Origin: Enoplolaimus lenunculus
Taxonomy: Eukaryota
NCBI GenBank assembly: GCA_030248215.1
Contig: JASANG010001107.1
Span: 124,001-188,000, forward strand
DNA: 64,000 bases
Direction: 5' to 3'
A program made the translations under genes and the position numbers. Within the stretch, counting starts at the first letter, position 1. Each line of letters begins with the position of its first letter. This document shows, piece by piece, positions 1 through 50,800 of this stretch. Below the pieces are notes generated by a model. The model had not been told where the DNA came from. It was given only the letters and a program-made list of their open reading frames with translations, and made no database searches.

Positions 1-655
1 CATGACAGCGGAATTTTCAGTCTTAACGAGAATCACTACGAAACTTTGAGCGAATCGTCGGGGTGAAAATTCGGCCTGCCACAGCTAATTTGTTACATTC
101 TATAGAGTTTTTTTAGTTTTGACAACTGTTATTTTTGATGGTGCAGTTATGATCTGTTGAGTTTGCCGTAGTCGGTATGTTTGTTCTGTTTGATGTTTAA
201 TATAAGTAATCCTAGAATTAGTGGCTCTTTTATATAAGTTGCAATACAAAATTAAATTTGACTCAAATTTCTCACACGTTTTTCACGGGCCAACATTGTC
301 GAAAACCGTTTATATCGCAAAAACTTTTCAAAACATAATAAAAGCACGAATAATATTTGTTTCACTTTAAAAGGGATATTTTTAAGAAAAACAGTGTTAT
401 TTTGCCATAGATGTTTTATTTTGGCAAGCGCAAGGGTTAAGAGTTCTCATTTTCTCATTCGTGGTGTTAGCTTTTCAAGTGTTCTATATGCACTTTTCAC
501 AGTGGTACATAAAAGTTCCAGTGGAACCGTTTTAAAATTTGAGCGTGGGAAAATCGTCTAGATTATATATTTGCTGACTAAAACATCAGTTTTCAATTGT
601 TTAGAACCATATTCTTGCGCCACTTTCAGGAGCGAATATGTATGATGTAAAGAAG

Positions 656-805
656 GGTCCATGTTACTGTAAGGTGCGTCCATGTTTTCGGTAGGTCCAC
701 AAAAGAGTAGGTTTAGATTCTAGGTTACATTTTTTGCTTAGGCTTAGGCGTAGGTTTAGGCTTAGGCTTAGGAACACATTTTTGCAACGCTTAGCTTAGG
801 CTTAA
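656..805 (+). repeat. Degenerate copy of the TTAGGC-carrying element; interstitial telomere-like repeats
   Basis: ggtccatgttactgtaaggtgcgtcc...(ttaggc)n...atttttgcaacgct is shared with 7118-7282. Confidence 0.7.
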
Positions 806-3800
806 GAAGTGTATCCCCTTGTGAAATTTCTGAAGAGCCAAGAAAAAGCACATTTAACAAGCTTCAGCAGAATATAAAATGTTCAGAAATGTTTCTAATC
901 GATATGCCGCAATAGAACGAAACCTTACAGCCATTTAACTTTTGAAGCTTGACAGCGTCTTGTATAAAATGTAAACTTTTATAAGCCTTTTAAAATCACC
1001 GACCTAAGTGTTCAGCCGTATAAATCAAATGCCAGAGGCTTACTGAATTGTAGATGACGTATATGGCCAAATTAGGGCTGGGAGCTCTAGAGCTGTCGCT
1101 GAAAGTTAGGTTTCTTTGCTATTTTCAACTTTACCCCGATATAGAGTGCAACAAAAATGTTCGCTGTGCCACAAGTATGCTTTCCATTTTAACCTTCGTA
1201 TAACGCTTTTGATTCATAAAATAATGTCAGGTGCTCTATTAATAGCTATAGGCCAATGTAAACAATAAGGGCCGAACGTTTTTCAGGGGCACCAATAGAG
1301 TAAGCTTAGTTTTCGAGTAATTTTCTTCTCAGGCATAGTCGCGAATTTGAATTTTAAACAATCTCGCCAGCTTCGCCACCCCTTTAGGTGTCGTTTGCTT
1401 TAGTTGTTGCTTAATTTTTGATGATCCAATGTCAAGTGCATTATAAATTCAATCGAGCAGCTTCGATGTTTAACATTCCCGAGATAAGCTTGGATGTGAT
1501 TTATCATCGCCTTGCCGTATGAACAAGAAGACTATGCACTGCAGTCCACTTCACTTTTAGGCAACGTATGGGGCGTCATGTAGACAGGGTCGTGTGAAAA
1601 ATCGAGCTGACACCGGGGCTAATGTTTCGGGTTTGCGGGCTCGAATTAACTACCTAGTCACGACACTGACATTTTCTGCTCCAGTCTTAGGAATAAACTG
1701 GGGTTAAAGGAATTTCAGCAGAGGCGTGCAAGAGTTTACGATGACTAAACACGCAAAGTTCAAATTACTCCTGCGTGTACCAAAATTCTTCAAATGGGGC
1801 TGAGTCCCCCTGACCCCGTCTCTACGGGCCCTTTCTCGAGTTTATTCCAACGAATCTAGAACGAGGCAAACCCATTAAATAGGAAGGAACGGCGGGTATT
1901 GCTAACCCAGAAAGGGCTGCAGCTACGAGAAGCGGGTCGGGGTGGGAAAGAGGATTTCTACAAACGTCGCTTACCACACTTGGTGGTAAAAGTAAGTGAC
2001 AGCATTGATATACTTCGATCTAATTTATCTTGCCAACACTCCAAATCTCCTGTCGTGTATATCAACAATAATTCCTGCTTACGCGTTTAGTCTGACCTCG
2101 TCACAGTTAAAAAAGCCAGCACGAAATGTCTGGCGCTGAGTGTTTTTCCGAAAAAAACCGGAAATTTTTTTAACTTTTTCTGTTATTAACAGCGTTCCGC
2201 TAAAACATATTAACATTGTTGGAAAACAACTGCGTAAATTGCCAAAAAATTGCACTCAAACAACAGCGCATAGCGCGTCATATGCCGTTTTTGTTTTGTT
2301 TTACGTCTCTGGTTTTATCCTTATGAGGCCTGTTGTCAGCTTGAATGTAAGCTTATTTGTAGCCTATGTAGCCAATCATAAATTCAACTTAGTATATTAA
2401 ACTAGCTAAACGGTCTATGGTATAAAAGATTTTAATTCACATACTTGTATCTTTCTGTCGTTGAATGAAATGCGATACGCTGACAGAACGAGTTAACAAT
2501 TTTGTTTGTCCAAGTTATGCTTGTTCTTTGCTCATATTGTATCACTTGATTCATGACTTGTACTGGTTTCTGTTATCAGATGAAGCAACGCATTTCATAT
2601 TCATTTATTCTTTATAAATTCAAGTTTTAAAATATTGACAGAGTTTCCGAAACCCTACTTAAGCACGACTTAGTACTTAAATGCGGGCTAAGTAATTGCT
2701 TAACAATTTTGTCAGCGTACTTAAAGTAAGTAAATATTTAAGTCGCTGACTAAATTTGATGTACTACATATTAACCGCTCAGCATACTAACCTTGGTGTC
2801 ATTGAAATAGTAGACTCATTATGCCTCCTTAAGGAAAACTCTTTGTTTATTGTCATGACAATTTCCGTTAAAGTGAATACTTTTCTTTGAGTAAGATTTC
2901 AGAAACCCAGCCAATAACTTTATAATAGGAAAAAGTGTATGGATTAATGTTGTTGGTTTAAAATGCAACAAGTTTGGGTCTTACCACAATGCCCAATATA
3001 TAGTGCACAAACAGGCGAGCTAAAATTTTCATTGGATTTAGTAGTTTGTTTCAGTAGAAACACCGTGCAGCTGTTTGCAATCAATATGTTCTGTGGGTTT
3101 ATTTGTTAATGGTCTGGTTAAACTAAAATTTTCAGGCCAAATATTGGCAAATTTTTGCACTTATATTTTTGTCATATATCATTTGCGCGTAATTGTTCAG
3201 TTTTTAAACCTGATAGCTATTGCCAGTTTTAGAGAATAAATGTAAAATTTGATTTGAAGAAAACGTAATACTCATCCTTACCATGACTAAATTTCGGCAA
3301 AATTAACGTCGCTCATGCTATTTCTCCAGCATTAAACACTGTTTCTTGGAACGTGTTTGAAACTGGCTACATTCAGTGTTCAAATGTGTCCATCGCATTT
3401 TTTGGTTCACATGCTTTACTCTACCTCATTTATGAAGGTAGATATTTTGTGTAAAGCAAAAATGAAATTCCAGTCGATACAAATATATACATGGTGCCAC
3501 TAGAAATTGAGTGGAGCAGGGGTAAAGCACAATGCATGCTGCTTTTGTACCACAATAAATGTGGTTCTGCCAGTACTACATGACCGGAACAAGCATTCTG
3601 ACCAAAATAACATGATCATAACAACAGGCTCCTAGCCTGCTTTAAAAATATCACTGGGGGTGGTATAAACTTTCGAGGAGGGCACGCAAGGATTTTGCTT
3701 AACGACGCTAAAATTTTTTTCTGGGTGCCAAAATTTGTCTAAGGGCTGAGTCTGCTCGGTTAGTTCTGACTACAAGTCCACATAACACACGCCAACCTAA

Positions 3801-7282: not shown

Positions 7283-7389
7283 CAAACTTTTATACTTTAT
7301 ACTGTTTCTTATCCCAAAATAGTTACCTCTGCTTGTATGCTTAAACATTATAGCAATCAAAATTAACAGGGTTATGACGTAAAATTAGT

Positions 7390-10300
7390 ATGAATCTAGA
7401 CGATATTCTTGTCAACCATATAGGTGATTTTGGCCGCTACCAAATAGTGCAACTTGGGTTATTGATTTTACCATGCATTTACATTTCAATGCAGTCCGTA
7501 TCGTGGACGTTCACCGGTGCAAAAGTTGATTATCGATGTCGCTTGGGTCATTTCGACGTTGTGTACGAGTTGCCCCCTTCACTGAAAAAACCAACAACTT
7601 ATGGCGAAGCGATTGACAACAGCTCAAAAACATCTCAACCACAATCTCAATTGGATACAAACAAAACGAAAGTTGATTTTAAAAGCTACAAATGCTACGT
7701 TCCTATACAACGTATGTTAAATGTTCAATTTGAAAACAAAACAGGGTACACGCAAAACATTATTAAAAAATATGCTGCTATGAATCCAGAAGACGAAATT
7801 CTCGCTATAACATCAGGCGCAACACCAGAGAACGTCGAAAATATTGCATTCGCCGAGGAAAATTCAACAATTTCAGATGAAGAAGCGAAAATTATTGCTC
7901 ACAACGTGTTGCGCACGAAATGTCGTCATTGGTTGTACGACGCGAGCGAAATTTCGTATTCAGCAATAATGCGCTGGAATATCGTGTGCGACCGCAGTCA
8001 TTTTCGTGCACTGGTACAATCGATGTATTATGTTGGACAAGGAATCGGGTCGTTAGCGTTTGGGTATATTGGCGACCGGTTTGGACGAAAAACTGCGTTT
8101 ATTACAGCCGCGTGGATGTTGTGCTTTTCGAGTAAGTTTTTTTTAAAATATAGAAGCAACGTTTTAAATTAGTAAAACTTTGAGCTTAGCAGTGGTCGTA
8201 GGTTACAGATTAGGGTTTTTTATACACTTTCTTTATATTTACTATTAAAATGTTATTTGCTAATAAATTTTTACAATTGAAAACATCGCCTTTTAGCGGA
8301 AGCTGTGAAATTATTTAAAATGCGCTTAACAAAGCATTTTAAATTTCTTAAAATACAGCCCAGGGACGTAACCAAAGCATCGGCCAAAGAACCACAAGGC
8401 TCTATGAGAGAAATAGGCTTAAAAACATAACCACATTCAGGGCATAACCGGATGTCTGCATATGGCTTCGGTTCCGGCAGAAAATCGACCTCCGACTCCG
8501 ATACAACTTTTGCCGGTGGTTCCGGTAATTTCGGTAGTAAAAATTTTGCACAGGTCTGCAAAATTTATCTGTGTGGCGCGTTTCGTTTTAACTTTTGACA
8601 TAATTTTGAAAAAAGGATTGCCGAGATTTCGAAAAATATAACCGTAAAACTAAACGATTTGACAACACATTACAGCTATTTGCGAAAATTAACAAATTAA
8701 ACATCATTTTAACTACCTAATTTCGCCTCACCGCCGGCTTTACCCACGGCTCCAGCAAATTTTGCTGACCTCCGGCTCCGGCTCCGGTATTTTTCACCTC
8801 CGGTTGTATCCTGCCGCATATACTCAAGAATCCGACGAATTTAAAACACATACAAATTTAATACATGTGTGATTCATATTGCTTATTGCTTGTATAAGAG
8901 TGAGTGATTGGCACTTGAACAAGAGTATACAACTAGGTATATTCTGTGTCGATAAGAGTATAATACCTCTTTTGTTTATCGGGAGACACCGATCCAGTTT
9001 TTCAGTTTTAAGCTGTTGCATTTAAATTCCGAACGCTATCGAATGGCTTCGGTAATATATTCCTAGATGCTGTGTTCATTGTGCGTTAGTAGGAACGTCA
9101 CACCAAAAAAATGGAGTGGGATAAGTAGGTCCAACATCCAACGCGCCCCGGTAGATTTTGTATCACGCAAACAAAGGTAAGTTGAGTAAATATTCTTCAA
9201 AGAGTCATCGAAATCAATTGCCAAACACAAATCAAATTTCAGGTATCGCAATGGCGATTGTTCCATGGATTGAACTGTTCGCAATTTTGCGTCTCGTTGC
9301 GGGTTTTGCACATCCGGGTATATTTGTAGTCGCAATCGTTATCGGAATGGAACTGGTCGGTCCATCAAAACGTGCTATTGGCTCAATTTCGGCAAATCTT
9401 GCGTTTTCAATCGGTCAAATTGGTCTAGTTTCAACAGCGGTTTTGATTCGGAACTATCAACATTTACAACTTGCGCTCTCGCTGCCGTGCATTGTTTTCT
9501 TGACCTATTATTGGCTAATGCCAGGCTCAGTACGATGGTTAATTTCGCAACGCCGCTATTCAGAAGCGGATCACATTTTGCGTCGAGTTGCTAAAATCAA
9601 TGGACGCTCATTGCCCGATGGTTGGTACCATGAGCTAGAAAATCATAGTTCTTTGCAGTCAAAGCAAGCGACCAATGATCTTGCATCAACACATAACGAA
9701 CAGCGCCGCATTAACCAATCGTTATGGGTTAAAATTAAACATCTTCCACAAATTATCTGCAGTGGTGGAAATCGCACGACTGACGCGATCGCCACAGAAC
9801 AACATAGGTTAAATTTTTTCGATCTATTTCGTACTCCATATTTGCGGAAATGTTCGTTAGTTCAGTTTGTAAGCTGGCCCACAGTCAGTATGGTCTACTA
9901 CGGGATATCAATGGATCCATCATTTTTAGGCGGTGATCGATATATGACCTTTTTCCTGTCGGCAATTATCGAAATCCCTGGCGTATTTCTGGCTGCGGGT
10001 TTGATTAATCGTGTGGGTAGAAAAGCGCTCATGATAGCATCGTTTGCGCTGTCAGGCGTATTCATGATGGGTGCGCTGTTTTTGAACCACGGCTCGACAA
10101 CACGGTTAGCAATCGGTTGTGTGGTATGCGCTAAAATGACCATTACTGCTGCGTATACGGTGATATACGCGTGGGCACCAGAGCTGTTTCCGACTACGCT
10201 CCGAAATCAAGCAATGGGAGCGTGTTCGATGACAGCTCGGATTGGCGGTGTAGTTGCGTCGTATTTGATAATGTTGGTTGCGGAACACTCGAAAAATACG

Positions 10301-10621
10301 GTTTCGTTAATTTTCGGCGTGCTTTCGTTGATCGCCGCAACGCTTTCATTGTTGCAACCGGAAACTGCAGGTGCAGTGACACTAGAAGGCGTTGGTGATG
10401 CAGAACAATTTGGTGCCGCGTCTCGGGTGTTCACGTTTCGCCCCCCAACAGCGTTTAGGGCACAATGTGATAGTTATGATAAAAGTCGACATCAAATGAA
10501 CAGTATGACAAGAGGGGCGGAAGAAAATAGCGACGCGTACCGTCGAGTTGAAGAGACTGACGAAGAAGTGGTCAGTAGTCGAACTACTGAATCGGCTGTT
10601 TTGATGAATGATACCGGATAA
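7390..10621 (+). CDS. SLC22-family (organic cation/anion/zwitterion) MFS transporter, 2 exons: 7390-8131 + 9243-10621, ~706 aa
   Basis: SLC22 motifs GDFGRYQ, WNIVCDR, GDRFGRK, ELVGP, PGSVRWL (PESPRWL-like), NRVGRK, ELFPTTLRN and PETAG. A phase-1 intron (gtaagt at 8132, tttcag ending 9242) joins the two ORF-track fragments in frame. Confidence 0.93.
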
Positions 10622-33515: not shown

Positions 33516-36500
33516 CTATGTATTCTGGTTACGAACCGCCGGTGAAGACTGCAAACAATAAAACCTTACCAATTTTTGGGTTAGTTGCTTGTTGACCATT
33601 AGTTCTTTTTCTAGTTTTTGCTGTGTTTCTTGAAGTCGCAACTTCAACTAAAACAATATAAAACTGGCATTCTGGCTTTATGCTCAGAGATCTGCACATT
33701 TAAGCGAAGGACCAGTTACATACTTAATTATAACACGCTAAATAAATTACGTACTTATCGCACTAGAATCTGTAATACATAGCAACGAAAGACTTATGTA
33801 CTTACTAAGCAGTTCCCGCAACAAAGTTTTGAAGCTGAGCCAAAACTATGGATCTGCTCTTTTCAACACGAAGTATCACAAAAAGTTGTTGGTTTTTATC
33901 ATTAGGACACAACTGCTTGTACTTTGTGTAAAAGTTTCGTAGCGACGATTGATTCACTACGCACTTCCCATAAACGGGTTACCTTGTAACTTTTCGTCAA
34001 AACGGACAACATCAGAAAATAAAAACTGGAAAAATGTTAATACCTCAATCGCATCTTCAGAAATATTGCCGCTCTATAACAAAAACTTTACATATTAAGT
34101 ATTATATCAACCAAGCACTCAAGAATCAAAATTCATAATATCCTCATTATGCACTCTGTAATCTGAGTTGCAAACAAAACACAACCAAATCGTTAAGTCA
34201 TTTAAAATTTCTTGTTCCTTCAATAGTTTTGAGACCAAAACATAACAGGCAGAAATGCCAGCGCAATGATAGTATTTCAGGCAGTAAACATTTTTATTTT
34301 ATGCTACCATTAAAACAAAACATTTCAACCAATATTACGTGACAAAAACACCAATGCTGACAAAACCCTTTCGAAATACCACACTTACAAAAGCAATGTA
34401 GCATGCTTATAAATTAAAGGAAGCGCGTTAATTACGGATACCTGTTTTCTGTAAATGGGGAATAACAGCCTTGGATTCGGCGTACGCTAATTTTAGACCC
34501 ACGCTTAGTAAGCAGACCACTACAACAGCTACACGGGCCTACTAGGCAATAAGTTATTATATAATATAATATATTATGCACGTAGCTTCAAGAGTTTTGG
34601 AAGTTGGAAGTTAATACGTAGAATTAGGCTTAGGCTTAGCAAGCAGACTTCTAGTTACACACATGGTAACTAAAAACATACAGCACTGACTGATCGTATG
34701 TATAAATGGAACAGTACTTTCAGTACAGCAGATTTGTGTTGCATGTTTACAGCAAACACCTCATTCAATACTGTCTAACTGACTAACTTGGTATTCCTTT
34801 AGTTGTGCTTGCAGTAGTTTTACATTCTCTTGTTCTTGCTTCAAAGCGTCTTGACCAGTTTTCAACATTCCACGCAACTTAACCGCTTGCGTCGATAAAT
34901 CTTGACCAGTCTTGCGTTCATTTGCCAGTTGAACTTCCAGATCTCGCACTTTCTTTAAAATCATGCACATTCACACATATAAAATACTTTTCAGTCTAGC
35001 ACAAATCTCAAACACTATATTTATACCGTCATTACCGTTTCGCTTGCGCTATCAGAAAATGTTAAAATACCCTAAAATATTTCATATGCAATTGTATTTT
35101 AGACGCACTGAGATGCAGTTTTCAGTTTCTTCATCATCATACCCACATGAAATACCTTTTCAAAATCGTGTCGTTCACTTGTTTGTTTTTCTAGTTCCGT
35201 CCCCAATTCAGCAAGTTTAGTTTGTGTCTAAAATGCAACAGAATTTTCTACAAAAATAATACTTCGGAGCAATTACAAAGAAAATTCTTATGCTGGCATC
35301 TAAACATTCACTTTGAACAATGACTTAGAACGTTGCAACCTTAAGCTATCGTGAGACAAATACTATAACCTAAATGTGCGCAAGACTAACAGTTTGTAAA
35401 AACAAAGTTAATAACGAGTAGGTTAAGTGACCATGCTCGTAGTGTTCACGTAGCGAAATACGTTCATCAATAAAAGTAAAAAAAACTTATACGCTTCAAT
35501 AACATACAATAACAAGCTTATTAACGCCTTCTTACATTCTAAACCTAAAGTAGTTTTCTGATGGGTTACGCACACAAAACTACGGAACTACTACTTTTAG
35601 TGTTCGCCTAAAATAACTTACATGCTCCATAGAATGCGTGCATCGCGCTTCTGCAACGCTGCGCCTTGATGCTTCAGACTGCAGCTATAATATTAAACAA
35701 AACGAATTCAATAATTATAGTTTAAAATTCTGTTTCTTAACATAACATCATTGGTCACTATAACACAGTCCACTATGGTCACGTTTAGAATCGATGTGTT
35801 ACTAACAATTGCACTAACAAGTGTTTTAAGTAAAACAAACCATCGCGAGGCCTAAAAATTACAAAGTAAATGAAAAATATTCTATAAAGCATAAATAAAA
35901 CCGATTTGGACAATTAAAACCTACACAAAATAGAGTCCAATCAATCTCTATTGACAACAATTCTCCATAGTCTTTATCCATATTTCGGGCTTGAATTAAT
36001 CTGGTTAAGCACCACAAACTAGATCAAAAACTATTAAATGCCAAAAATCACTGCGAGTTCATTATTTTACAATTTAAATTTAAATGAAGGTATCATACAC
36101 ATACGCATGCTTACCTTTTCAATTTGGCGTTCAAGCACAAGTATTTTGTTGCGCGAATGGGACCGTTCGACTTCTTGCTGCTCAGTTTCTGCTGCAACAG
36201 AACTTTCAAGTGCACGTAGGACAGAATCTGTATGAGCGAGCACGGACTTGTAGTTTTCCAACTGCGATTCTAGCGATTCGTTCGTTGCACACAACGTTTC
36301 GATTCGAGCCGCCAAATGCTGTGCGTCCTGTAATAAGTGAGTGATAGCATTTCAACTCAAGATATTTTTCAGCTCTTTTGAATTTTGTAGAAAATCAGAC
36401 TCATCTTACAACATTAGTAATTTTTCAGAGCATTCTCCGTATATAGAAGTTAAAATTTAAATAAAAAATGGGTAAGTGTAATTAAAAATTTGAAGCGCTC

Positions 36501-38821
36501 CTTACCATGTCCGTCGTATTACATTTGAGCTCTTTTAAATTATTTTAAACAAAATCAATCATCCCCGTCGGTGGTCTAAGGGGTACTGTTTTTGGTAAAT
36601 CTGGAACTACAATGGCGTTTAGACTTACAGATCCCGTCTCCGTAGAAAGCGTATTTGCTATCACAGCAGTGTTTTTCAGAACACCCGTACTAACTTTCTG
36701 AACTTGTTTTTCAAATTCGTGCAGCCATTCTCGATAGCTCTGAAATTTGGTAGATGAACATGAACTGATTTTGATAAACTAAATGGTTTTTCCATAACAA
36801 GCCATAACTTACTGAACGGAGAGTTCAGCTTGGCGGTTACAGGGAAACAACTGAACTTATACAATATCGTTTTCTGCAAAAAACAAGCAGCATAATAAAC
36901 AATATAATGTTCAGGGCGCTATTTTACAGTAGAAGATTAAAAGGAAAAAAAACAATTTGCTATCTATACAATAACAAACAATACCAGTGAACCAGCATTA
37001 GAAATAATAATATTTGGAAATGTAGCCAGCAGAAGTTCTTGTGTCAAATTTCGCTGTTCGTCCCATTCCAAGCGATATTTTTCCTAAAACAACAGTCTCC
37101 GTACTAGCACTGTCGGTAGTAAACAAATACTGTTGATGTAAGTCCTGACCCTTTCATCTTCCAATTTTTGTGGAGGGCTTCCCCCAACTGGAAACTGGAG
37201 GAAAACCTGGTGGCATTTGAAAAGTGAGGGGTCAATTAACCCAGGTTCAACTTGTGAGTATTTTGATACATTTCTACACATACGCTCGCTTTTAATATAC
37301 AAGATTCACTTCTTAGATTATTTAGACATTTTCGACTGATAATACGCCCACAGAAGCGGTGTATTTCGTTATATTTTAGTTTTTCAAACCGTGAAAAACA
37401 TTTTCAAAGAGGTTATATGGTGCCAACACTATGAAAAAGTGGGGACATCAACCTTGAGTAGTCGGAAAGGGACGCTAAGGTGGATTAAAATCAAACATAG
37501 AACAATTTCAGTGGCACCGCAAGGGTTTACTAAAACAACGCGATAACCTTTGTAACTACATTGCAAAACAAACCTCAATGTCTTTGGTTGCTTTTTTGGC
37601 AACTTCTTGTGCTACCTTATCCACTTGATTTGCTGCTTGCACGGCTTTGTAATTTTTTTCGCGAAGTTCCTAATAACATAACACGACAAAAGATTACGTA
37701 CAGAAAACAATTAACCGGACAGGTAAGTCAAACATACGTTCCAGTCACGGTGCAACCGGAATTACAATTTACCGAACCGGAATTTGAAAATTTTACCGGA
37801 ACCGGAAAGTGAAAAATGCGTTTCACCAAAAATTTCATTTTAATCGTATTTTTTGCTCTATCATTTGTGAAACAACCTTAGTCGAACATAGGTATTTATT
37901 TTATTTGTTGTATTTTAGATTTTCATCGTCGACTGAAGTGAAATCCACCATCAATGGCTTATATTCGGAGTACAAGTGGCTTTCAAAAGAGATTCTTAAA
38001 AATTAGCAAAGTTAAGAAAACGGCGAAACTATAACACCGGAATTTTTAAATCCGGTAAAAATTTACCGGAACCGAAACCGGAAGGTGAAAAAATGCCGGA
38101 ACCGGAATTCCGGTTGCACCCTGGTTCCAGCGTATGATTTAAAAAACAGTTTTCACACAAGTTTCAGCTGAGTTTTTAGATATGTACTAGTATCACTTAC
38201 ACAAACATGCCCTCCACTTACTTGCAAAATGCGCTGAGACAGCTCATACAACAACGCTAAATAAATCTTGGCGACGTATCCCAACTTACATTATTTTTGT
38301 CTTGTTGTTTCTTTAAATCAGCTTGAAGTTTATCAATTTCAGCTTGTTTATTAGAGATTTGAGAACGCAGCTGCTTTAACGTTTCAGTCTGGTTTTCGTC
38401 GCTGATGGTACCGTTTCTAAAATAGCATAAATACTGCGAGAAAATTTACTTTATTATAGAAACTGAATTTGAACAAATAAAAAACCACTATGTAATAACG
38501 TTTTTCTATATCTAAATAAAACCCGAGAAGATCGTAAAATTAGTTTCAGCAACATAAGAGTTGCGGTACATCATCAGTAAATGAGAAATAAAAACTTACA
38601 TTGTTGTGTGACTACTCTCAACAATGGTTTTTGTTGTAATGTCTTGAGACTTCTGCAAACAAATAGCATTAATTTCCAGTTGACAAGAGAGTTACGCGTA
38701 GCGTTATATACTTTGTGCTCGGGGATCGAAAGGTGGATGTCCGTCTGTCCGAAAGCTTAATTGCTTAAGTCTGTCCGAGGTTCGCTAATATAGTCTCACC
38801 GCGACTGGTTATTATTATTAT

Positions 38822-38856
<35 letters not shown>

Positions 38857-41800
38857 ATTATTATCATGGCAATCATGAACAGCTAAACTCTGTTTTCGCA
38901 GTTTCAACAGAAGCAGCTCAGACGGCAAGGTGGCACCGAATCCACTATTTGATCGAATCCGAATCCAAATCCTACATGTTGCAATTTTCAGATATCTATA
39001 ATTTGTATCAGAATATCAGCGCAATGATATAGCATAACTGTTAAACGTTAATATATTTCTTACTCGACCTAAGTTCTGAGATTTGTGACTTGAAACTAAA
39101 AGTACTGATTTATGTAACAAGTTATTTAAAATTTTTATTGTTTAAAAATGAAAAAACATTGCCGAGCACTGTTGGATTGGCCTTTTCCACAACCGAATCC
39201 GAATCCGAACCATATATTTTACTGAATCTGAATACGAACCTTTGTTGCCACCCTGTCAGATAGATGTCAATATTATTAAGATGCCCTATGTTAATGCGCG
39301 AGACAGTGATGATCACTAAACAATGAACGAAAAAAACTTACGAAACAATAATAAAACACAATGCTTAAAATTTGCAACGTTCACCTGCGTTGACTCGGTA
39401 GCTCCAGTCATAGCTCTCAAAAATTCGGGCCACTCAATCGTTCCTGAGCCTAAAAATGTAAAAGTAATAGTTAATTACAAATTGATGTAATGTGACGGAT
39501 GAATAACAGAAAAACTAGTCTTACAGATTTACCACGTGTTGTTCTATTGCAAGCAGTATCGAACACCAGTACATTTCCACAGTGCTCAAAATCCATTGAT
39601 AATAATTTATCAATAAACAAGAAAGGAAAAACGTGTATGGCAGCAAAGTTGATGAAACCGTTTTAACAGTTAGCACATTGACAATTCTCCCTCTGAGTTA
39701 TACTTCATTTGAAAATTAAAAGACACATAACGTACACCGTCCTTGCATGCTCTTAGTTTATTTCTCGTTGTTAAACATAACAAGCTTACCATCGAAATCC
39801 GCTTCGGCAATCAAATCTTTTACCCATCTTTGAGATGGCTTCATCCCGCATGCTTTAATGGCTTCATGAATTTCAGCTAGCGTTATGCATCCGTCACCAT
39901 CTTTGTCAAAAAGCTTGAAGGCCATTCGATATCCTGCACAAAAATTAAATACTAAATAACCTACAACCCAACCAGCTCAATAGGGCTTGCCTTTTATGCA
40001 AAACCATTGAAAATTATTTGCATTAAGCTATGCTAATAAAAACAAATTGATCTCTAGTTCGCAAGAGACCAGTCTTAATGACCCCTGGGCCCCGTGACAT
40101 AGCCAAACGTTTACCTGGAGTTTAAAGCATCCAAACAAATTCTGGTCATGTTCTGTTTCACGAAACAGATCTTTAAAGGCGCCTAGACAGTAACTTCGAT
40201 TCACTAAAATTATTTCAAATAAATATTGCACACATATTTCTATAGTTTATTACCAATTACACTTTCAATGTAACTTACGATCTATTGTGTCTTGTGATAA
40301 AGCGTAAGTCTAAAAATACCAAGTAAATTGATTATATCATTATATGTATGTAACAAAATAAATCAGATTTGCTCATGGTAACGTCAACACACAAACTCAC
40401 TTTTTAGATTTATATAGCGTAAACAAGATATATACTTATTTTAAGTTGGAAGCTGCATTGGGGACATAAGTTTTGCCATAACATTTAAAAATGCATATTA
40501 AACTGGCACAAAAGCTTAAGAGGGACTAAAACGTTAAGAATATTACATTATTCTTAGCGGCAACTAAGTATTTTACATACCGTTTTAGCGTAAATATCCA
40601 TGTACTGGCTTAGCTGCGTTTCCAGACGGAAATTTTTCGTTTGTAGCAATTCTAGTTCTGCTGCACTAGATTCCTACAATTAATTCTTGCACAAATACAA
40701 TCACTGTTTCGGCTTCACAAAACTACTATTAACATACATTATTTTAATTTCGTGGTAAACCTAATTTGCAATGTTTCATAACTTTAAAATTTTTGCATTT
40801 CAAACTCTGCTATTGCAAAACGCAGGTGAACGGACCTGGTTAGAAAACTGAAACCTCGGAGTAAAGCATTTCATGTATTTTGTCAGATATGGATACGAAC
40901 ACGAAAAATCTAGGTTTTAACAGCGTTTTTTTAATCCTAATTGTTGACAATAATTATTTTGTTATCGAAATAATTTTAATTGTAGTTCCAGTCTCGAAAA
41001 GAACTGATTTCGGAAAACTACTTTCACAAGCCATGAGGACGAAAATACAGTGTTTATTATTGGGACATGAATGGATATTTTTAAAAGCAAAAATCCCAGC
41101 AAGAAGTTCGTGCTATTACAACGCTTAATGAATTTCTTTGTGGGATATTTCACTCTGCATACTTTATTTTCGTCACTATTGTTAGTTGCTGCCGAAGCCA
41201 GCCGTTGCTGGAGTTCCTGAACATTGCGCTCAGCGTTCATCAAATTTTCACTCAATGTCATTATTGTTCGCTCCTTTTCTTTTAAACTAAACAAAAAAAG
41301 AAAAACACACTACACCGATATAACGCTGAAGCAAAGATTCGTTTCTTACTTAGCGTATGTCGGCTGTCAAACTGACGGTCAATACCTATAACCTACCCGT
41401 AGCCAAGTAGGACTCAGCCTCACAAGAAATAAATTGGACCCATTGGAAGTTTAGCTTTGCATCGTTATACGTATGTATTTAATAAACTTGATTCTTATTA
41501 TTAATCCACTCATTAAGCGTAAAAAAATAATGCGTTTGCACATTTAATACAAGATGTAAATTTCAGAACGGAAAACGCGCAACTTGATAACTACGCGCTA
41601 AAATCAGATTTACACAATTATAACAAAATAAAAATCAAGCCAAAATTGCAGTGAACAGCCAGAAATATCTCAAACGCAGTCATTTTTCTTAATCGCAACA
41701 ACTGCTATCGATTTAAATGAAACCCGAATGAGCTACTGCTCACCAAGCAATATCAGGCATAGACGAAGGAGAAGATTGCTGAGCACCAGCTTCAGTAAGG

Positions 41801-44800: not shown

Positions 44801-47800
44801 TATGAGGCAAATGAAAGACGCGGAAATGTTTAAGTTTTCACAGAATCACACATCAATAAAGTTGTTTTGTTGAACCACTGTCCCATCTGTCGTTGGGTAG
44901 TACCGGGACAGTGTCCAAATTCCATCGACAACAAACTTAAATTCATGCCGACCACGAGGTAAATCAACGATAACCGACCTGCTTCCTTGCTTTGAAAAAT
45001 TACACCTGCTGCTGTTATTAGCATCCGAACGGTCATCAACACGTAAATCACTCATTTCCAGAAAACGATCCCAGTTACAAAAGCCACCAGTCAGCTTGAC
45101 ACTGTTACCCCACGCCTCATGCCAATAAATTGTAGTCGGCTTTAACCCCAAGAACGAAGAAGACTTATTGAGGTTATCCCACTCCATAACGCCGCTCTGT
45201 GTTGTTTTTAACAACGGCATGTCAGACTTCTGATTCTCAACAGCACAGTTACAGCCACCTTTGATTTGCGCAAGCGTGGATTCAGCAGTCATTTCTTCAT
45301 TAGTGTGCAGGTTCGTTGAATTATCAATACTGGGTGAAGTATCTCGATATTCAATTTCTACCTTCTCATCATCAGTTAATAAGGTTTCGCTCCATGTCGC
45401 TTTCTCCAAAGTTTCAGGAACCACGTCCCTCTCAACGCGTCTTGCATCTGCAGTTTTCGGCGAACAGACCCCACTAAAAATAAGAAGTAAAAACATTATC
45501 CGGCCTCAAAACTTCACCAAAACAATGCAGATGCTCAGCAAACAAAAACCATAAAAATAGTTCATAAAAATAGTTCGCGGAAATATATACACAAAAAAAT
45601 ACACTTTACAGCTTATAACAAAAAAAGTTAGCTTATCAGTAATTTATCTCATAAATGGGTTTAATCAGTCACCTTCTTTAGGTTACGCTAAAAATGACCA
45701 TGACCTCAACTTATGTTTCACACTTCTGGTTAGCAGTTTTTCAGAATGCATAAAAGTCTCAAGCTGTAGATAGGGAGATAACAGAACTCCTAAGTGACTT
45801 ATTACGATAATTGTTTAAAGTGATCAAATCGCTACCTCTGAAATGTATTTTTCCATAGTAGCCCAATAATTCAGGGTTCAACCAAATACCAAAATATCAG
45901 AGCTGAATACTTCAATATAGGGCTTTAATAATTTTGCCCCTGCGAGGGTCTTGGTAATAACTGTGTTTCTTATTCTTGGTATACCTATACACCGCAGCAG
46001 GTGGATGTCAATTTTTTGCGGTAGTCAGATATTAGGGTGCGCCCTATCTGCAGCACATTAATATACGTATAATAAAAAGAGTAAACAGGTTAAAAATGAA
46101 AAAGTTCTACGAGGGTCAAAATAAAGGTGCCAAAAACGAAAGCCACAAAAACAAATCCCAAACTAAAATAATGTGCGTTACGTAATAAAAACTATACGTG
46201 CTTGAAAGTTTAAGTGTTTAGAAGAACTCAAGAAGTTGTTTAAAGTACAATTCGGGACGTTCGCGTAGGCGAGTGTATTGAACAATTTATGCACTATGAC
46301 ATATAAAAATTATTCTGGCTTGCCCGAACGTTTCCACAGCAGATTTCGTTTGGAAAAAATCGACGAATAAGATTACTTTACTGGTTACCGAACTTCCGTG
46401 GTTACCGAACTTCCGAAGGTAAGTACGTAGTCAATTTTGTGTATTTAGCAGAGCTCAGCTCACTGATTAAAAGTTTTCAGTATGCATCCACAACCAGTTC
46501 GCAGCGATAAGTAACCGGTTAACCGGGTGTATTGAGCAGAGCTCACTGATTAAAAGGTTTGACAATGCATCCAGGACCAGTTTGCGAGTCTAAATTCAAC
46601 GTTTGAGTATCTAAAAATTTCCCTGTTTTAACGAGATGTCATTGTCCGCCCCACAAAAAGTGTAAAAATTGAGCCATTTTTGATACATTGTTATACAAAA
46701 ACAGCTTGCGAATATTTGTAAGTAACAACTGGTGCGAGTAGTATCTTACAAAAAATGTCGATTTCAAGAACTGTCATAATACTTCCGACTTGTTCGTTAA
46801 TTTTGAATGAGAAACAATGAGTGACCAATATCACACCCAAGCATTATAATATTATGCGCCGTTCACAATAATTTTGTCAACGGTGCCACAAAATATGCCA
46901 TAGCCCAAGGCTATCACGAGGTCATTTTTAAAATGACCTCGTGATAGCCTTGGGCTATGGCATATTTTGTGACACCGTTGACAAAATTATTCTGAACGGC
47001 GCATAATATTATAATGCTTGGGTGTGATATTGGTCACTCATTGTTTCTCATTCAAAATTAACGAACAAGTCGGAAGTATTATGACAGTTCTTGAATGAGA
47101 AACAATGAGTGACCAATATCACACCCAAGCATTATAATATTTTGCGCCGTTCACAATAATTTTGTCAACGGTGCCACAAAATATGCCATAGCCCAAGGCT
47201 ATCACGAGGTCATTTTTAAAATGACCTCGTGATAGCCTTGGGCTATAAGCGAAATCGCTTATAGCTCAGGGCTATCACGTGTCAGCACCGTCCTCGAAAC
47301 TCGTGATAGCCCTGAGCTATCACAAAATTTCCTCTTCTATATATATTTATATTCATAACACACATATGTTTATGTGTGTTATGAAACGTGATACCAGCAA
47401 ATTCATTTTTAAAATTTTAATCCTCTGCTCTGCACGATAGCTCAATGCTATGAGGAGTTTTGTGGCAAACCTTAAATTTTGAAACACTGAGTGGACTTGG
47501 AAAAATTTTCACGCTTTACAGACTGAAAAATTTTTAGGCGTAAGGTGTCTAGAAATATTTTGAACAAAGTGGAAAAAATTTTCAGGCGTAAGGGTGTCTA
47601 GAAATATTTTCAGGCGTTTTATGGAGTGTCTACAAACTTTGCTGAAAGTCGTGCACTGCTCTTTATACATGGGCCTTTTATTTTCAGAACGCGTGATCCA
47701 AATCAATTGTGGGCGACTGACACGCAGTCAGAATTGATCAGAATGGCATTCAACAATACGCTTTTTACGGCAACTGATATTTTGTCAGACACTTTTTTGG

Positions 47801-50800
47801 CCAATGTAAACAACAGGGGCGAAACAAAACCATATAAGCCTTGGGCTAAGCCTATACAAGCAAAAAAATTTAATCTATAAAGCCTAAGCTACTCTAATGA
47901 GTCGTAAAATATGTAGTATTCAAGTGTTTTATGTATAGTATATAAAAATATAGAAGTTACGGCCCATGTAAACATCAGGGGCGCAGAGTTTTTCTGTTTG
48001 ACTAGAATAGAGTATATAAGCTTTAAGCGCTCGCCTCTGTTCTTTACATTATCCGAGGTTATACTAGCGACGAACCCAAGTACCCAAAATCTCCAATAAC
48101 GAAACATTTTAATCCGCATCAGGTGTTGGATTTCTCTTAATACTTGGCACTCAAGCCATAGTCGAACCTATGAATTTATATTGGAATTTATCGTTTATCA
48201 AATTATAAAACAGTTAGCAATAAAAAACTAATACGTTCTCGAAATGTACCGTAGTACTCGTTTTCACAATATAAAATTAAACTTTCAACGGCGATTATTT
48301 TTGTTTCTGTAAAATGCTGACTTTTGCTTTTGTAATGCTAAACTACAATCAACTGATTTGACTCTGAGTCTACACAAATGTCGGGACGGGCTCTTTTATA
48401 CCATAAAATTTGAGTATCATTGGCTCCCTCTCTTTCATATCTTTAGCAGTAAAACTAGCTGACCGGCTAACTGACCTAGCAGTAAAGGGTAAATGGACTA
48501 GGTATATCTTTCGTACCATAAAATTTTCCATCTTCCTCAAAATTTTAAAAATCGAACGGTGCCACAAAATTTGCCCTAGTTCAGGGCTAAAACGAATATT
48601 TGCAAATTTTAAGATGTGTAACTTGATAGCTTTGTGTGTTGTTTGTGTGTTAATTTGCGTTGTGTGCGTTTGTATTGTGTTTGTGTATGTGGTGTGAGTG
48701 GCTAAATTCGAGGTGGTTTGTGATAGCTCAGGGCTATCACGAGTTTCGAGGACGGTGCTGACACGTGATAGCCCTGAGCTATAAGCGATTTCGCTTATAG
48801 CCCAAGGCTATCACGAGGTCATTTTAAAAATGACCTCGTGATAGCCTTGGGCTATGGCATATTTTGTGGCACCGTTGACAAAATTATTGTGAACGGCGCA
48901 TTAAAAGCAATTTTACAATGAAAAGGTTAAAAGCGTAACACTACTCCACTTGGCTTCGAGCCAACCAAGCTACCAGAAATTTAATCGCTGCACCTATTTT
49001 AAAAATTGAACATTACATATCAATCTTATTCGCTCGCACAATGAAATTCAGTTTTTCTCATGCACGCCCTCAAGCAGTTTAAAGATAGAACGAAAGTAAT
49101 GGATGAACTTAATCGTTGCGTATTTGCAGTATAAGAACTTGGTAGTTTCAAGTGGTTAACGCGATCAAATTTTATTCCCAACACGTTATTTACGACTTTA
49201 TGGCAATGAGTAGATTAATCAAAGTCTGTAATAAAAGTGGAAGAATTATTACTCTTACCATTGGTTTAATTGAACGAAGTGACAAGCAGGGTGCAGTACA
49301 TCGTTAATTATACCGGATTCGAAGCAGGATATTTATACCGAAATCGGAATTAGATATTTTCAAAGCCAATATTTTTTACATACGGAGTCTTATTATATGC
49401 AATTACATAGTATGCGACAGATAAGCATAATGTACCTGATTTAGCATGCATATTATTTATGCTTTTGTAATAATTTATATGTTTATATAAGAAATGTGCG
49501 CTGAAAACGGATATACGCACCGGTTATGCAACTTAAAAGTACTACACTATTTTAAATGATACAGGTTAGAAACTACGTATAATTTTACGATATCAATTAA
49601 TTATATATACCTGCAATCTGAATCGGAAGTTAGTTTCAGTCAGAATTCTAATTGGAATCAGAATCTCGTTTGCACCTTGGCAATAAGTAAAGTTGTACTG
49701 AAAAATGTGTAGCATCACACAAAGGTTAGCCACTCAACACCAATATTCACGAAACAATGTGCCAGGGAAGGGCCGTTTTATGTCAAGCATGCTCGTGTGC
49801 TCTACTAACTTTATTTTCACTTCTTCACCACTGGCTGAGACAACATTAGACATTTCCATTTGTAGATTCGCACACTGCGCTTCTGCATTCTTTTGCGCAA
49901 GTTTCGCATCATGTAAATCAGTTTCCAAATGGGTTATGCTGAAACTAGACGCCATAGTTCAATTAAATAATAAAACAAAAAACGAGTAGAATTAACAAAC
50001 AGTGCATTGGGCTTTCCGACAGTAACCTATTGGTTCAAATTGGTGTAACATAGGTACAGTAAAATTAATTCGTTGGTGAAATTATTTTTACTTCTACTGG
50101 GGGTCCTGGATTTAACCATCGAAGTCACAATAACACAAGCAAAATACAGCTATCAAATTACGTTGCTTTCATTTCGTCAACTTGACTTTTAAGCGACGCA
50201 GATTCCGCTTGTGACAACTGCAGTGACATTGTCGTTTCTCCAATTTGAGCTTTCATTACTGCGACATCAGCTTCCAACGAGTTTTTGGCGTTTCGAGCAT
50301 TTTCCAATTCTTTGTATCTGAAATATTGATTACGTATTGTCGTGCTGGACACACCATGGTCTTTTGAAGCTTGACATAAAGCATGTATATATGTTCGCCT
50401 TGCATATGGTAATATTCCTTATTTTTGCCAACTCTAGTGGTAATAAGCTCTAGTTTATGAGTAACAGCCAACTCACCAGTCTGTGCTTGCGCTCCGCGGC
50501 GACAGGACATTGATGAAGCGCTGGCGGTAGAATATGTAAAGGGCCCACCAGGGTTCCACCGGAATTCCTGTAAAAATTCGATTCCTGTTCCGGCACTGAA
50601 AGACAGAGGAAATCGAATGTTTACGATTTCGCTGCTAATAATGAAGAACCAGGTAAAAAACAAAAACTTACGCCTCAAAATTTAATAGAAACACAGCTTC
50701 TTTTCACAACTTACGTTCCGTGCTCATATTCCTCATTTTTAGTTATCTGACGCATGTTTCTGTGGAACTTGCAAGACTGGCTATGAAAACCCAAAATAGG

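Follow-up and report, generated by a model that had tools for sequence, protein, structure and literature searches.

A calmodulin-family EF-hand lobe carried in frame within the coiled-coil rod of an RRBP1/kinectin-like gene of Enoplolaimus lenunculus

Kinectin (KTN1) and p180 (RRBP1) space and position the sheets of the endoplasmic reticulum (ER) and recruit kinesin-1, dynein adaptors and translation factors. In the sections cited here, p180 is described with a membrane anchor at residues 6-33 and a microtubule-binding basic segment at residues 51-80 (PMC3206573, PMC8732269), and KTN1 with an N-terminal anchor and a 1000-residue parallel dimeric coil (bioRxiv 2024.11.06.622207). The portion of that preprint on which we draw also reports a single KTN1/RRBP1 homologue in invertebrates, and binding of KIF5 (kinesin-1) and CDR2/dynein by the C-terminal rod of human KTN1 and p180. 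No Ca2+-binding part of kinectin or p180 is given in the RRBP1/KTN1 literature examined, and the term 'EF-hand' is absent (0 occurrences) from the main text of three papers (PMC8230838, PMC9804665, PMC12491259). The author of the initial annotation of the present locus likewise knew of no EF-hands in these proteins. Nor is the fusion of an EF-hand lobe to such a protein described in the titles and abstract openings that our literature searches covered, mostly those of papers available outside subscription; automatic annotations may already contain the architecture without comment. Here we report such an in-frame fusion in a host gene of this type, and we consider it almost certainly real.

The window (the whole 64-kb stretch of E. 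lenunculus DNA that was analysed) contains a long gene for a coiled-coil protein, the features of which are collected in the table. The gene model was built by hand and its 5' exons are the least certain. It reads through 1479 residues without a stop, and all 35 introns (178-7055 nt) are GT-AG, 23 of them being in phase 0. A last exon at 33548 was rejected, as it implied a 21-nt intron, and 31893-31858 was chosen, matching the tail of a related protein, P0001, which is described below. The predicted protein opens with one hydrophobic stretch (windows 1-13, peak 3.35), has 11 Lys/Arg residues across positions 51-80 and shows heptad character over about 80% of the residues from 370 to the end, by a crude score; Pfam returns many weak coiled-coil matches. 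The single N-terminal membrane helix, the basic patch at about 51-80 and the cytosolic coiled coil of about 1000 residues are common to this protein, RRBP1/p180 and KTN1. It differs from them by the two-EF-hand lobe within its rod and by the absence of tandem decapeptide ribosome-binding repeats from the model. The short form of p180, p180s, also lacks most of these repeats according to the cited sections of PMC3206573/PMC8732269, so that their absence bars the 'vertebrate long p180' alone.

The initial annotation had named the host RRBP1/KTN1; the architecture fits this proposal, but no tool named it. Searches of Pfam, NCBIfam and PDB gave no match naming the host RRBP1/KTN1, and exon 1 alone, compared with Pfam at E 0.1, matched no family, including PF05104, which we take to be the Pfam N-terminal Lys/Pro-rich domain of RRBP1/KTN1 (P0001 has no corresponding part). 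The matches in the ESM Atlas were unnamed throughout and all below 0.9. Host exon 36327-36115 yielded one PDB row of no use (E 0.52), 0 matches among 144 candidates in a protein search and 0 among 599 metagenome stretches, while two protein searches with host exons returned P0001 and a second protein, P0002, alone, neither being a named RRBP1/KTN1. The silence of exon 1, the ESM Atlas and the protein searches, together with the missing decapeptides, would suit another membrane-anchored coiled-coil protein of similar build rather than an RRBP1/KTN1 orthologue. We hold this to be improbable, since the best-conserved C-terminal blocks of the host resemble RRBP1/KTN1 motifs, which we treat as a lead and not as a test. 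Moreover, in its topology, in the position of its basic segment (51-80) and in the length of its rod the protein fits p180/KTN1 as given in the cited sections of PMC3206573, PMC8732269 and PMC8230838, and invertebrates have one KTN1/RRBP1 homologue according to the part of bioRxiv 2024.11.06.622207 cited above. The host is very probably a true RRBP1/KTN1 protein; as this link is drawn from architecture and motif resemblance, we label it 'RRBP1/kinectin-like'.

Table. Features of the host gene and of its EF-hand cassette, in window coordinates
Feature	Position	Strand	Description
Host gene, RRBP1/kinectin-like	61027-31858	minus	36 exons, 1479 aa, collinear with P0001
First coding exon	61027-60797	minus	Single hydrophobic helix then basic segment; outside P0001 coverage
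Candidate alternative last exon	45473-44845	minus	629 nt; acidic Ser/Thr-rich spacer, AMPK-beta-type glycogen-binding module, stop
Upstream host exon	40673-40581	minus	Coiled coil, phase 0 to 0
Cassette exon A	40309-40279	minus	31 nt, phase 0 to 1; AG/GT edges
Cassette exon B	39933-39790	minus	144 nt, phase 1 to 1; EF-hand 1, helix C, start of loop 2
Cassette exon C	39449-39385	minus	65 nt, phase 1 to 0; remainder of EF-hand 2
Downstream host exon	38652-38600	minus	Thr/Ser-rich linker, phase 0 to 2

The cassette was described at the outset as three phase-0-flanked exons encoding 80 residues with two canonical EF loops, and our analysis bears out this description. Exons A, B and C together form 80 codons without a stop, have AG/GT edges and run through phases 0-1-1-0, and both flanking host exons join them in phase 0, at 40581 and at 38652. 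Exon B matches both EF-hand_1 (E 2.4e-8) and EF-hand_7 above the Pfam cut-off. The cassette contains two Ca2+ loops, each of 12 residues and with its ligand residues spaced as in calmodulin, and both fit a PROSITE-style EF-loop pattern that has no other match in the modelled 1479-aa protein. True full-length calmodulin is a free protein of 149 aa with four EF hands; in contrast, the cassette has no C-lobe, no start and no stop of its own, as the initial annotation also stated. The codon preceding exon A is an in-frame TAG that is part of its acceptor, and an in-frame ATG is missing from all 3 GT-purine-purine sites that were listed for the preceding intron (40580-40310). There is no C-lobe in the 64-kb window, because a tblastn search with a fetched calmodulin matches exons B and C alone; a C-lobe remnant or a second lobe in the window was rejected on this search, a survey of exons and frames and the comparison with P0001. 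A protein search with exon B gave 0 matches among 5 candidates, and Rfam gave 0 matches in the window.

The fusion is not confined to the window. A protein search with host exon 34952-34788 gave two matches among 50 candidates, P0001 and P0002. P0001 has 1518 residues, and since its coding sequence requires 4557 nt of a contig of 4856 nt, it must be intron-free; it is probably an assembled transcript. Its source labels it merely an EF-hand protein. P0001 and the window gene are collinear from about exon 3 through the last exon. As the N-terminal membrane segment is missing from P0001, this protein is 5'-partial or represents a different isoform. The lobe is present in frame, as the initial annotation had proposed for the host coiled coil, and occurs twice: lobe 1 lies at residue 802, immediately behind the rod motif that ends the upstream host exon, and lobe 2 is an in-frame second copy from residue 968, also preceded by the rod motif. 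Residues ~775-1046 of P0001 form a tandem duplication of the rod motif together with the EF lobe. Lobe 2 is degenerate, having lost its loop 2, and three of the four P0001 loops match the EF pattern; the persistence of lobe 2 indicates that the lobe can be kept without full Ca2+ chemistry.

The window lobe is identical to P0001 lobe 1 at 46 of 80 positions and to lobe 2 at 36 of 78, exon C being 74% identical to P0001 over 23 aa. The host without its lobes matches P0001 at 436 of 1184 positions (36.8%), and 73 of 1105 host windows of 80 columns reach 46 identities. The pairing of the window lobe with either P0001 lobe was not rejected (p-AU 0.48 and 0.17), and the preferred P0001 lobe differs between local and global alignments. 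P0002 is a 102-aa C-terminal fragment outside the lobe region, and P0001 and P0002 are each a single-member cluster, so that the comparison of lobes rests on one relative. A protein whose host part is 37% identical carries the same lobe in frame, and the lobes form one clade (see below), which argues that the fusion is old and under selection.

A simulation of neutral decay points in the same direction. Substitutions were introduced down to the 46/80 identity of the window lobe with P0001, which is a rough scheme without indels and with all change on one branch. Among 5000 runs, the frame was kept in 525, the splice dinucleotides in 333, both loops in 6, and all three in 0. This last figure bears on the reading in which the exons belong to a separate nested gene, or are pseudo-exons in decay that the host transcript always leaves out. 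The joining of exons is read from DNA alone in this species, and a strong donor-like site (7.7 bits) lies unused at 40400 on the minus strand, in the intron before exon A, as a nested gene might have it. Yet this site has no in-frame ATG, no C-lobe exists in the window, and P0001 holds both host-to-lobe junctions in one continuous frame. The nested-gene or pseudo-exon reading is largely refuted by P0001, and we give it hardly any credence.

We then asked where the lobe came from. PDB alignments place exon B residues 2-47 on calmodulin residues 14-59, from which it follows that the cassette begins at chain residue 2, just past the start Met. The window lobe is identical to five fetched calmodulins at 31-34 of 79 positions, with no indels. 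Of 246 PDB matches for P0001, the best 60 all pair its lobe with the N-terminal lobe either of calmodulin itself or of a calmodulin fusion construct. A tree was computed from 28 lobes; in it, the lobe of the window and the two of P0001 (the three host lobes) form one clade (100/100) on the N-lobe side (95/97), at the end of a long branch; the clade keeps 100/100 without the rows of L028, a many-lobed calmodulin-like gene, and of L049 (18 rows). Joining the host lobes with calmodulin C-lobes was rejected (p-AU 0.013). As to troponin C, centrin or myosin light chains as donor, the best 60 PDB rows are calmodulin or calmodulin-like, and the tree was made without those proteins. The N-lobe origin claimed at the outset is upheld by these comparisons.

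The intron positions add to this picture. A metagenome scan with exon B found 68 loci, of which 50 were examined. The arrangement AG/144 nt/GT in the exact register of exon B was present at 27 of the 50, with 21 distinct exon sequences, these 27 having been chosen after their flanks were seen; the remaining 23 had no introns at the exon B edges. All 27 (L010, L019-L022, L024-L027, L029-L046) resemble the first lobe of L028, and they therefore count as about one independent gene. L028 itself holds, at 113-3361, an intron-free frame of 1083 aa with many tandem calmodulin-like lobes and 19 EF-pattern matches. These sequences show the 144-nt exon to be common to the calmodulin family and not proper to calmodulin alone, and the donor may be a calmodulin-like paralogue, because the same exon is found in a many-lobed calmodulin-like gene. 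The initial proposal of half a calmodulin-like gene as donor holds for the N-lobe, with such a paralogue possibly taking the place of calmodulin itself. The 31 nt of exon A are the length of calmodulin exon 2; as the flanking exons of the 27 loci were not found, this match is drawn from the alignment register and from the usual structure of animal calmodulin genes.

The 5' edge of the cassette and the two phase-1 introns around the 144-nt exon occupy calmodulin-family gene positions, as first claimed. The claim does not extend to the 3' edge, which lies at chain residue 81, in the central linker, a position without an intron in the calmodulin genes cited here. In the cited section of PMC6171432, the first exon of abalone calmodulin genes codes the start codon alone, exon 4 has no intron, and the sea-squirt gene has the same structure; since the central linker is without an intron in both animals, the donor at 39385 should be new or host-derived. 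Retroposition was rejected, as the introns were kept, and the match of two phase-1 introns and the 5' edge to calmodulin-family genes supports the DNA-level shuffling that the initial annotation had invoked. We propose that genomic DNA of a calmodulin-family gene, reaching from its first intron into its fourth exon, would have been inserted into a phase-0 intron of the host. The phase-0 acceptor that came with it, together with a phase-0 donor in the central linker that was either new or supplied by the host, would have made the cassette frame-neutral. The product shares with the calmodulin N-lobe (residues 2-81 of the 149-aa chain) the two canonical loops, their spacing, the 5' edge and the phase-1 introns; it differs by having neither C-lobe nor start, by a remodelled, less acidic pocket with two new Trp, and by being tethered to a rod.

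The cassette had also been called symmetric and skippable. The frame is indeed kept when all three exons are lost (1399 aa), but the splice sites are of host strength and P0001 includes the lobe. A regulated alternative module, included or skipped according to tissue, would be compatible with the Ca2+ switch that we discuss below. In its favour, human KTN1 has alternative rod exons that add a partner-binding domain (PMC12768868, section cited). Scores from a host-trained matrix show that the donors of exons A, B and C outrank 11, 27 and 6 of 32 host donors, and their acceptors 16, 19 and 25 of 32 host acceptors, all sites being inside the host range. Among the three cassette donors, that at 39385 scores lowest, with weaker host donors in only 6 of 32 cases, as regulated skipping might require, whereas the other five cassette sites rank mid to high. 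Furthermore, five of the six partial skips shift the frame (exon B alone can be skipped in frame), and P0001, the sole relative covering the lobe, includes it. Since 23 of 35 host introns are in phase 0, the symmetry of the cassette is weak evidence for regulated skipping, and we regard such regulation as possible but on balance not likely.

What the lobe does may be approached through its surface. The window lobe and P0001 lobe 1 agree with calmodulin L003 at 24 positions, whereas at 22 others the two host lobes agree with each other and differ from this fetched calmodulin, among them E11R, F12Y, L32I, V35A, M36I, L39C, E47W, M51L, V55A, F65W and M71A. In calmodulin, many of these 22 positions line the target pocket. 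The net charge of the host lobes is -5 and -7 (the window lobe having -5), against -11 for calmodulin; with fewer Met and acidic residues and two new Trp, they do not present the Met-rich, acidic pocket of calmodulin. The new Trp residues are kept even in the degenerate lobe 2 of P0001.

Our preferred reading, which we consider somewhat more probable than not, is that the lobe would give the protein a calcium switch of its own, facing the cytosol at the ER. On binding Ca2+ in both loops, the lobe would expose its hydrophobic pocket. Loops that are intact, next to a pocket that has been rebuilt and conserved, point to a sensor that has a single fixed partner in place of the many targets of calmodulin. 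This partner would most likely belong to the dimer itself, as an adjacent helix of the rod or as the lobe on the second chain, and a Ca2+-dependent clamp might then bend or gate the C-terminal rod segment just downstream, both steps being pure conjecture. We favour gating of the C-terminal rod because the lobe lies about 60 residues upstream of its best-conserved blocks and because the human counterpart binds KIF5/CDR2. A genuine lobe with a structural role, serving the rod as a hinge, as a spacer or as a clamp between the two chains (or else buffering Ca2+ locally), without any switch, would accord with the erosion of the Met-rich, acidic target surface, with the conservation of the new Trp in lobe 2 and with the survival of that lobe despite its broken loop. 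This alternative has to explain why the EF pattern is matched by both loops in each of two species, with host parts of 37% identity, and why neutral decay kept both so rarely (6 of 5000 runs); we judge it unlikely, and retain the calcium switch.

The same gene may have captured a second module. The candidate alternative last exon lies within the 7-kb host intron 49809-42755 and matches Pfam PF16561 (E 1.1e-14); its PDB matches, 15 of 15, are AMPK beta. Splicing from the host donor at 49810 would enter the exon in frame and yield a 1091-aa isoform without the EF lobe, and its acceptor is typical, being stronger than 17 of 32 host acceptors. The exon is absent from P0001, none of 4 hexamers serving as poly(A) signal was found within 445 nt downstream of 44845, and four possible ATG-bearing exons lie upstream of it. 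It is a candidate for the last exon of a membrane-anchored glycogen-binding isoform or for a part of a nested gene, and on sequence grounds we take it as a lead only. STBD1 and plant PTST are analogues of such an isoform, which, if true, would tether glycogen to the ER. The 7-kb intron also holds, upstream of this exon, a nest of palindromic and inverted repeats (46763-48901; arms of 105-184 nt, 97-100% complementary) that is transposon-like. Elsewhere in the window there are a gene for an SLC22-type cation transporter with few long frames (7378-10618, plus strand; TIGR00898, E 2.5e-80) and an open frame of 947 codons, apparently with few or no introns, that matches DUF229 (18154-15314, minus strand; E 1.2e-108). 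One could imagine that a single gene forms a modular ER sensor, in which one or two lobes per chain pair as a membrane-tethered pseudo-calmodulin switching the binding of motors or translation factors, with a shorter glycogen-tethering isoform beside it; we regard this combined scheme as doubtful.

The domain architecture is new for a kinectin/p180-like protein, and the process behind it is known. The cassette is a clean, intron-documented case of phase-0 exon shuffling of an intracellular domain, in which half a gene was made frame-neutral by a new donor. A lineage whose rod contains a sensor, duplicated and retained through deep divergence, would allow cytosolic Ca2+ control over ER-sheet scaffolds to be tested directly and would reveal the part of the rod at which it is exerted. 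Plant CDPKs, alpha-actinin, spectrin and Rab11-FIP3/4 also carry a calmodulin-like or EF domain on a tether; in these proteins, as would hold for the host protein, a Ca2+-sensing lobe is built into the chain that it presumably regulates. Their domain is ancient and stands at the end of the chain or beside an enzyme, whereas the host protein carries one lobe in the middle of a membrane-anchored rod, with calmodulin-gene introns still present. A likeness within the family is the V2 alternative exon of KTN1, which, in the cited section of PMC12768868, is also inserted in the rod, where it breaks the coil and brings in a binding function. V2 is short, native to its gene and binds the tRNA-synthetase complex, while the cassette described here is a folded domain from another gene.
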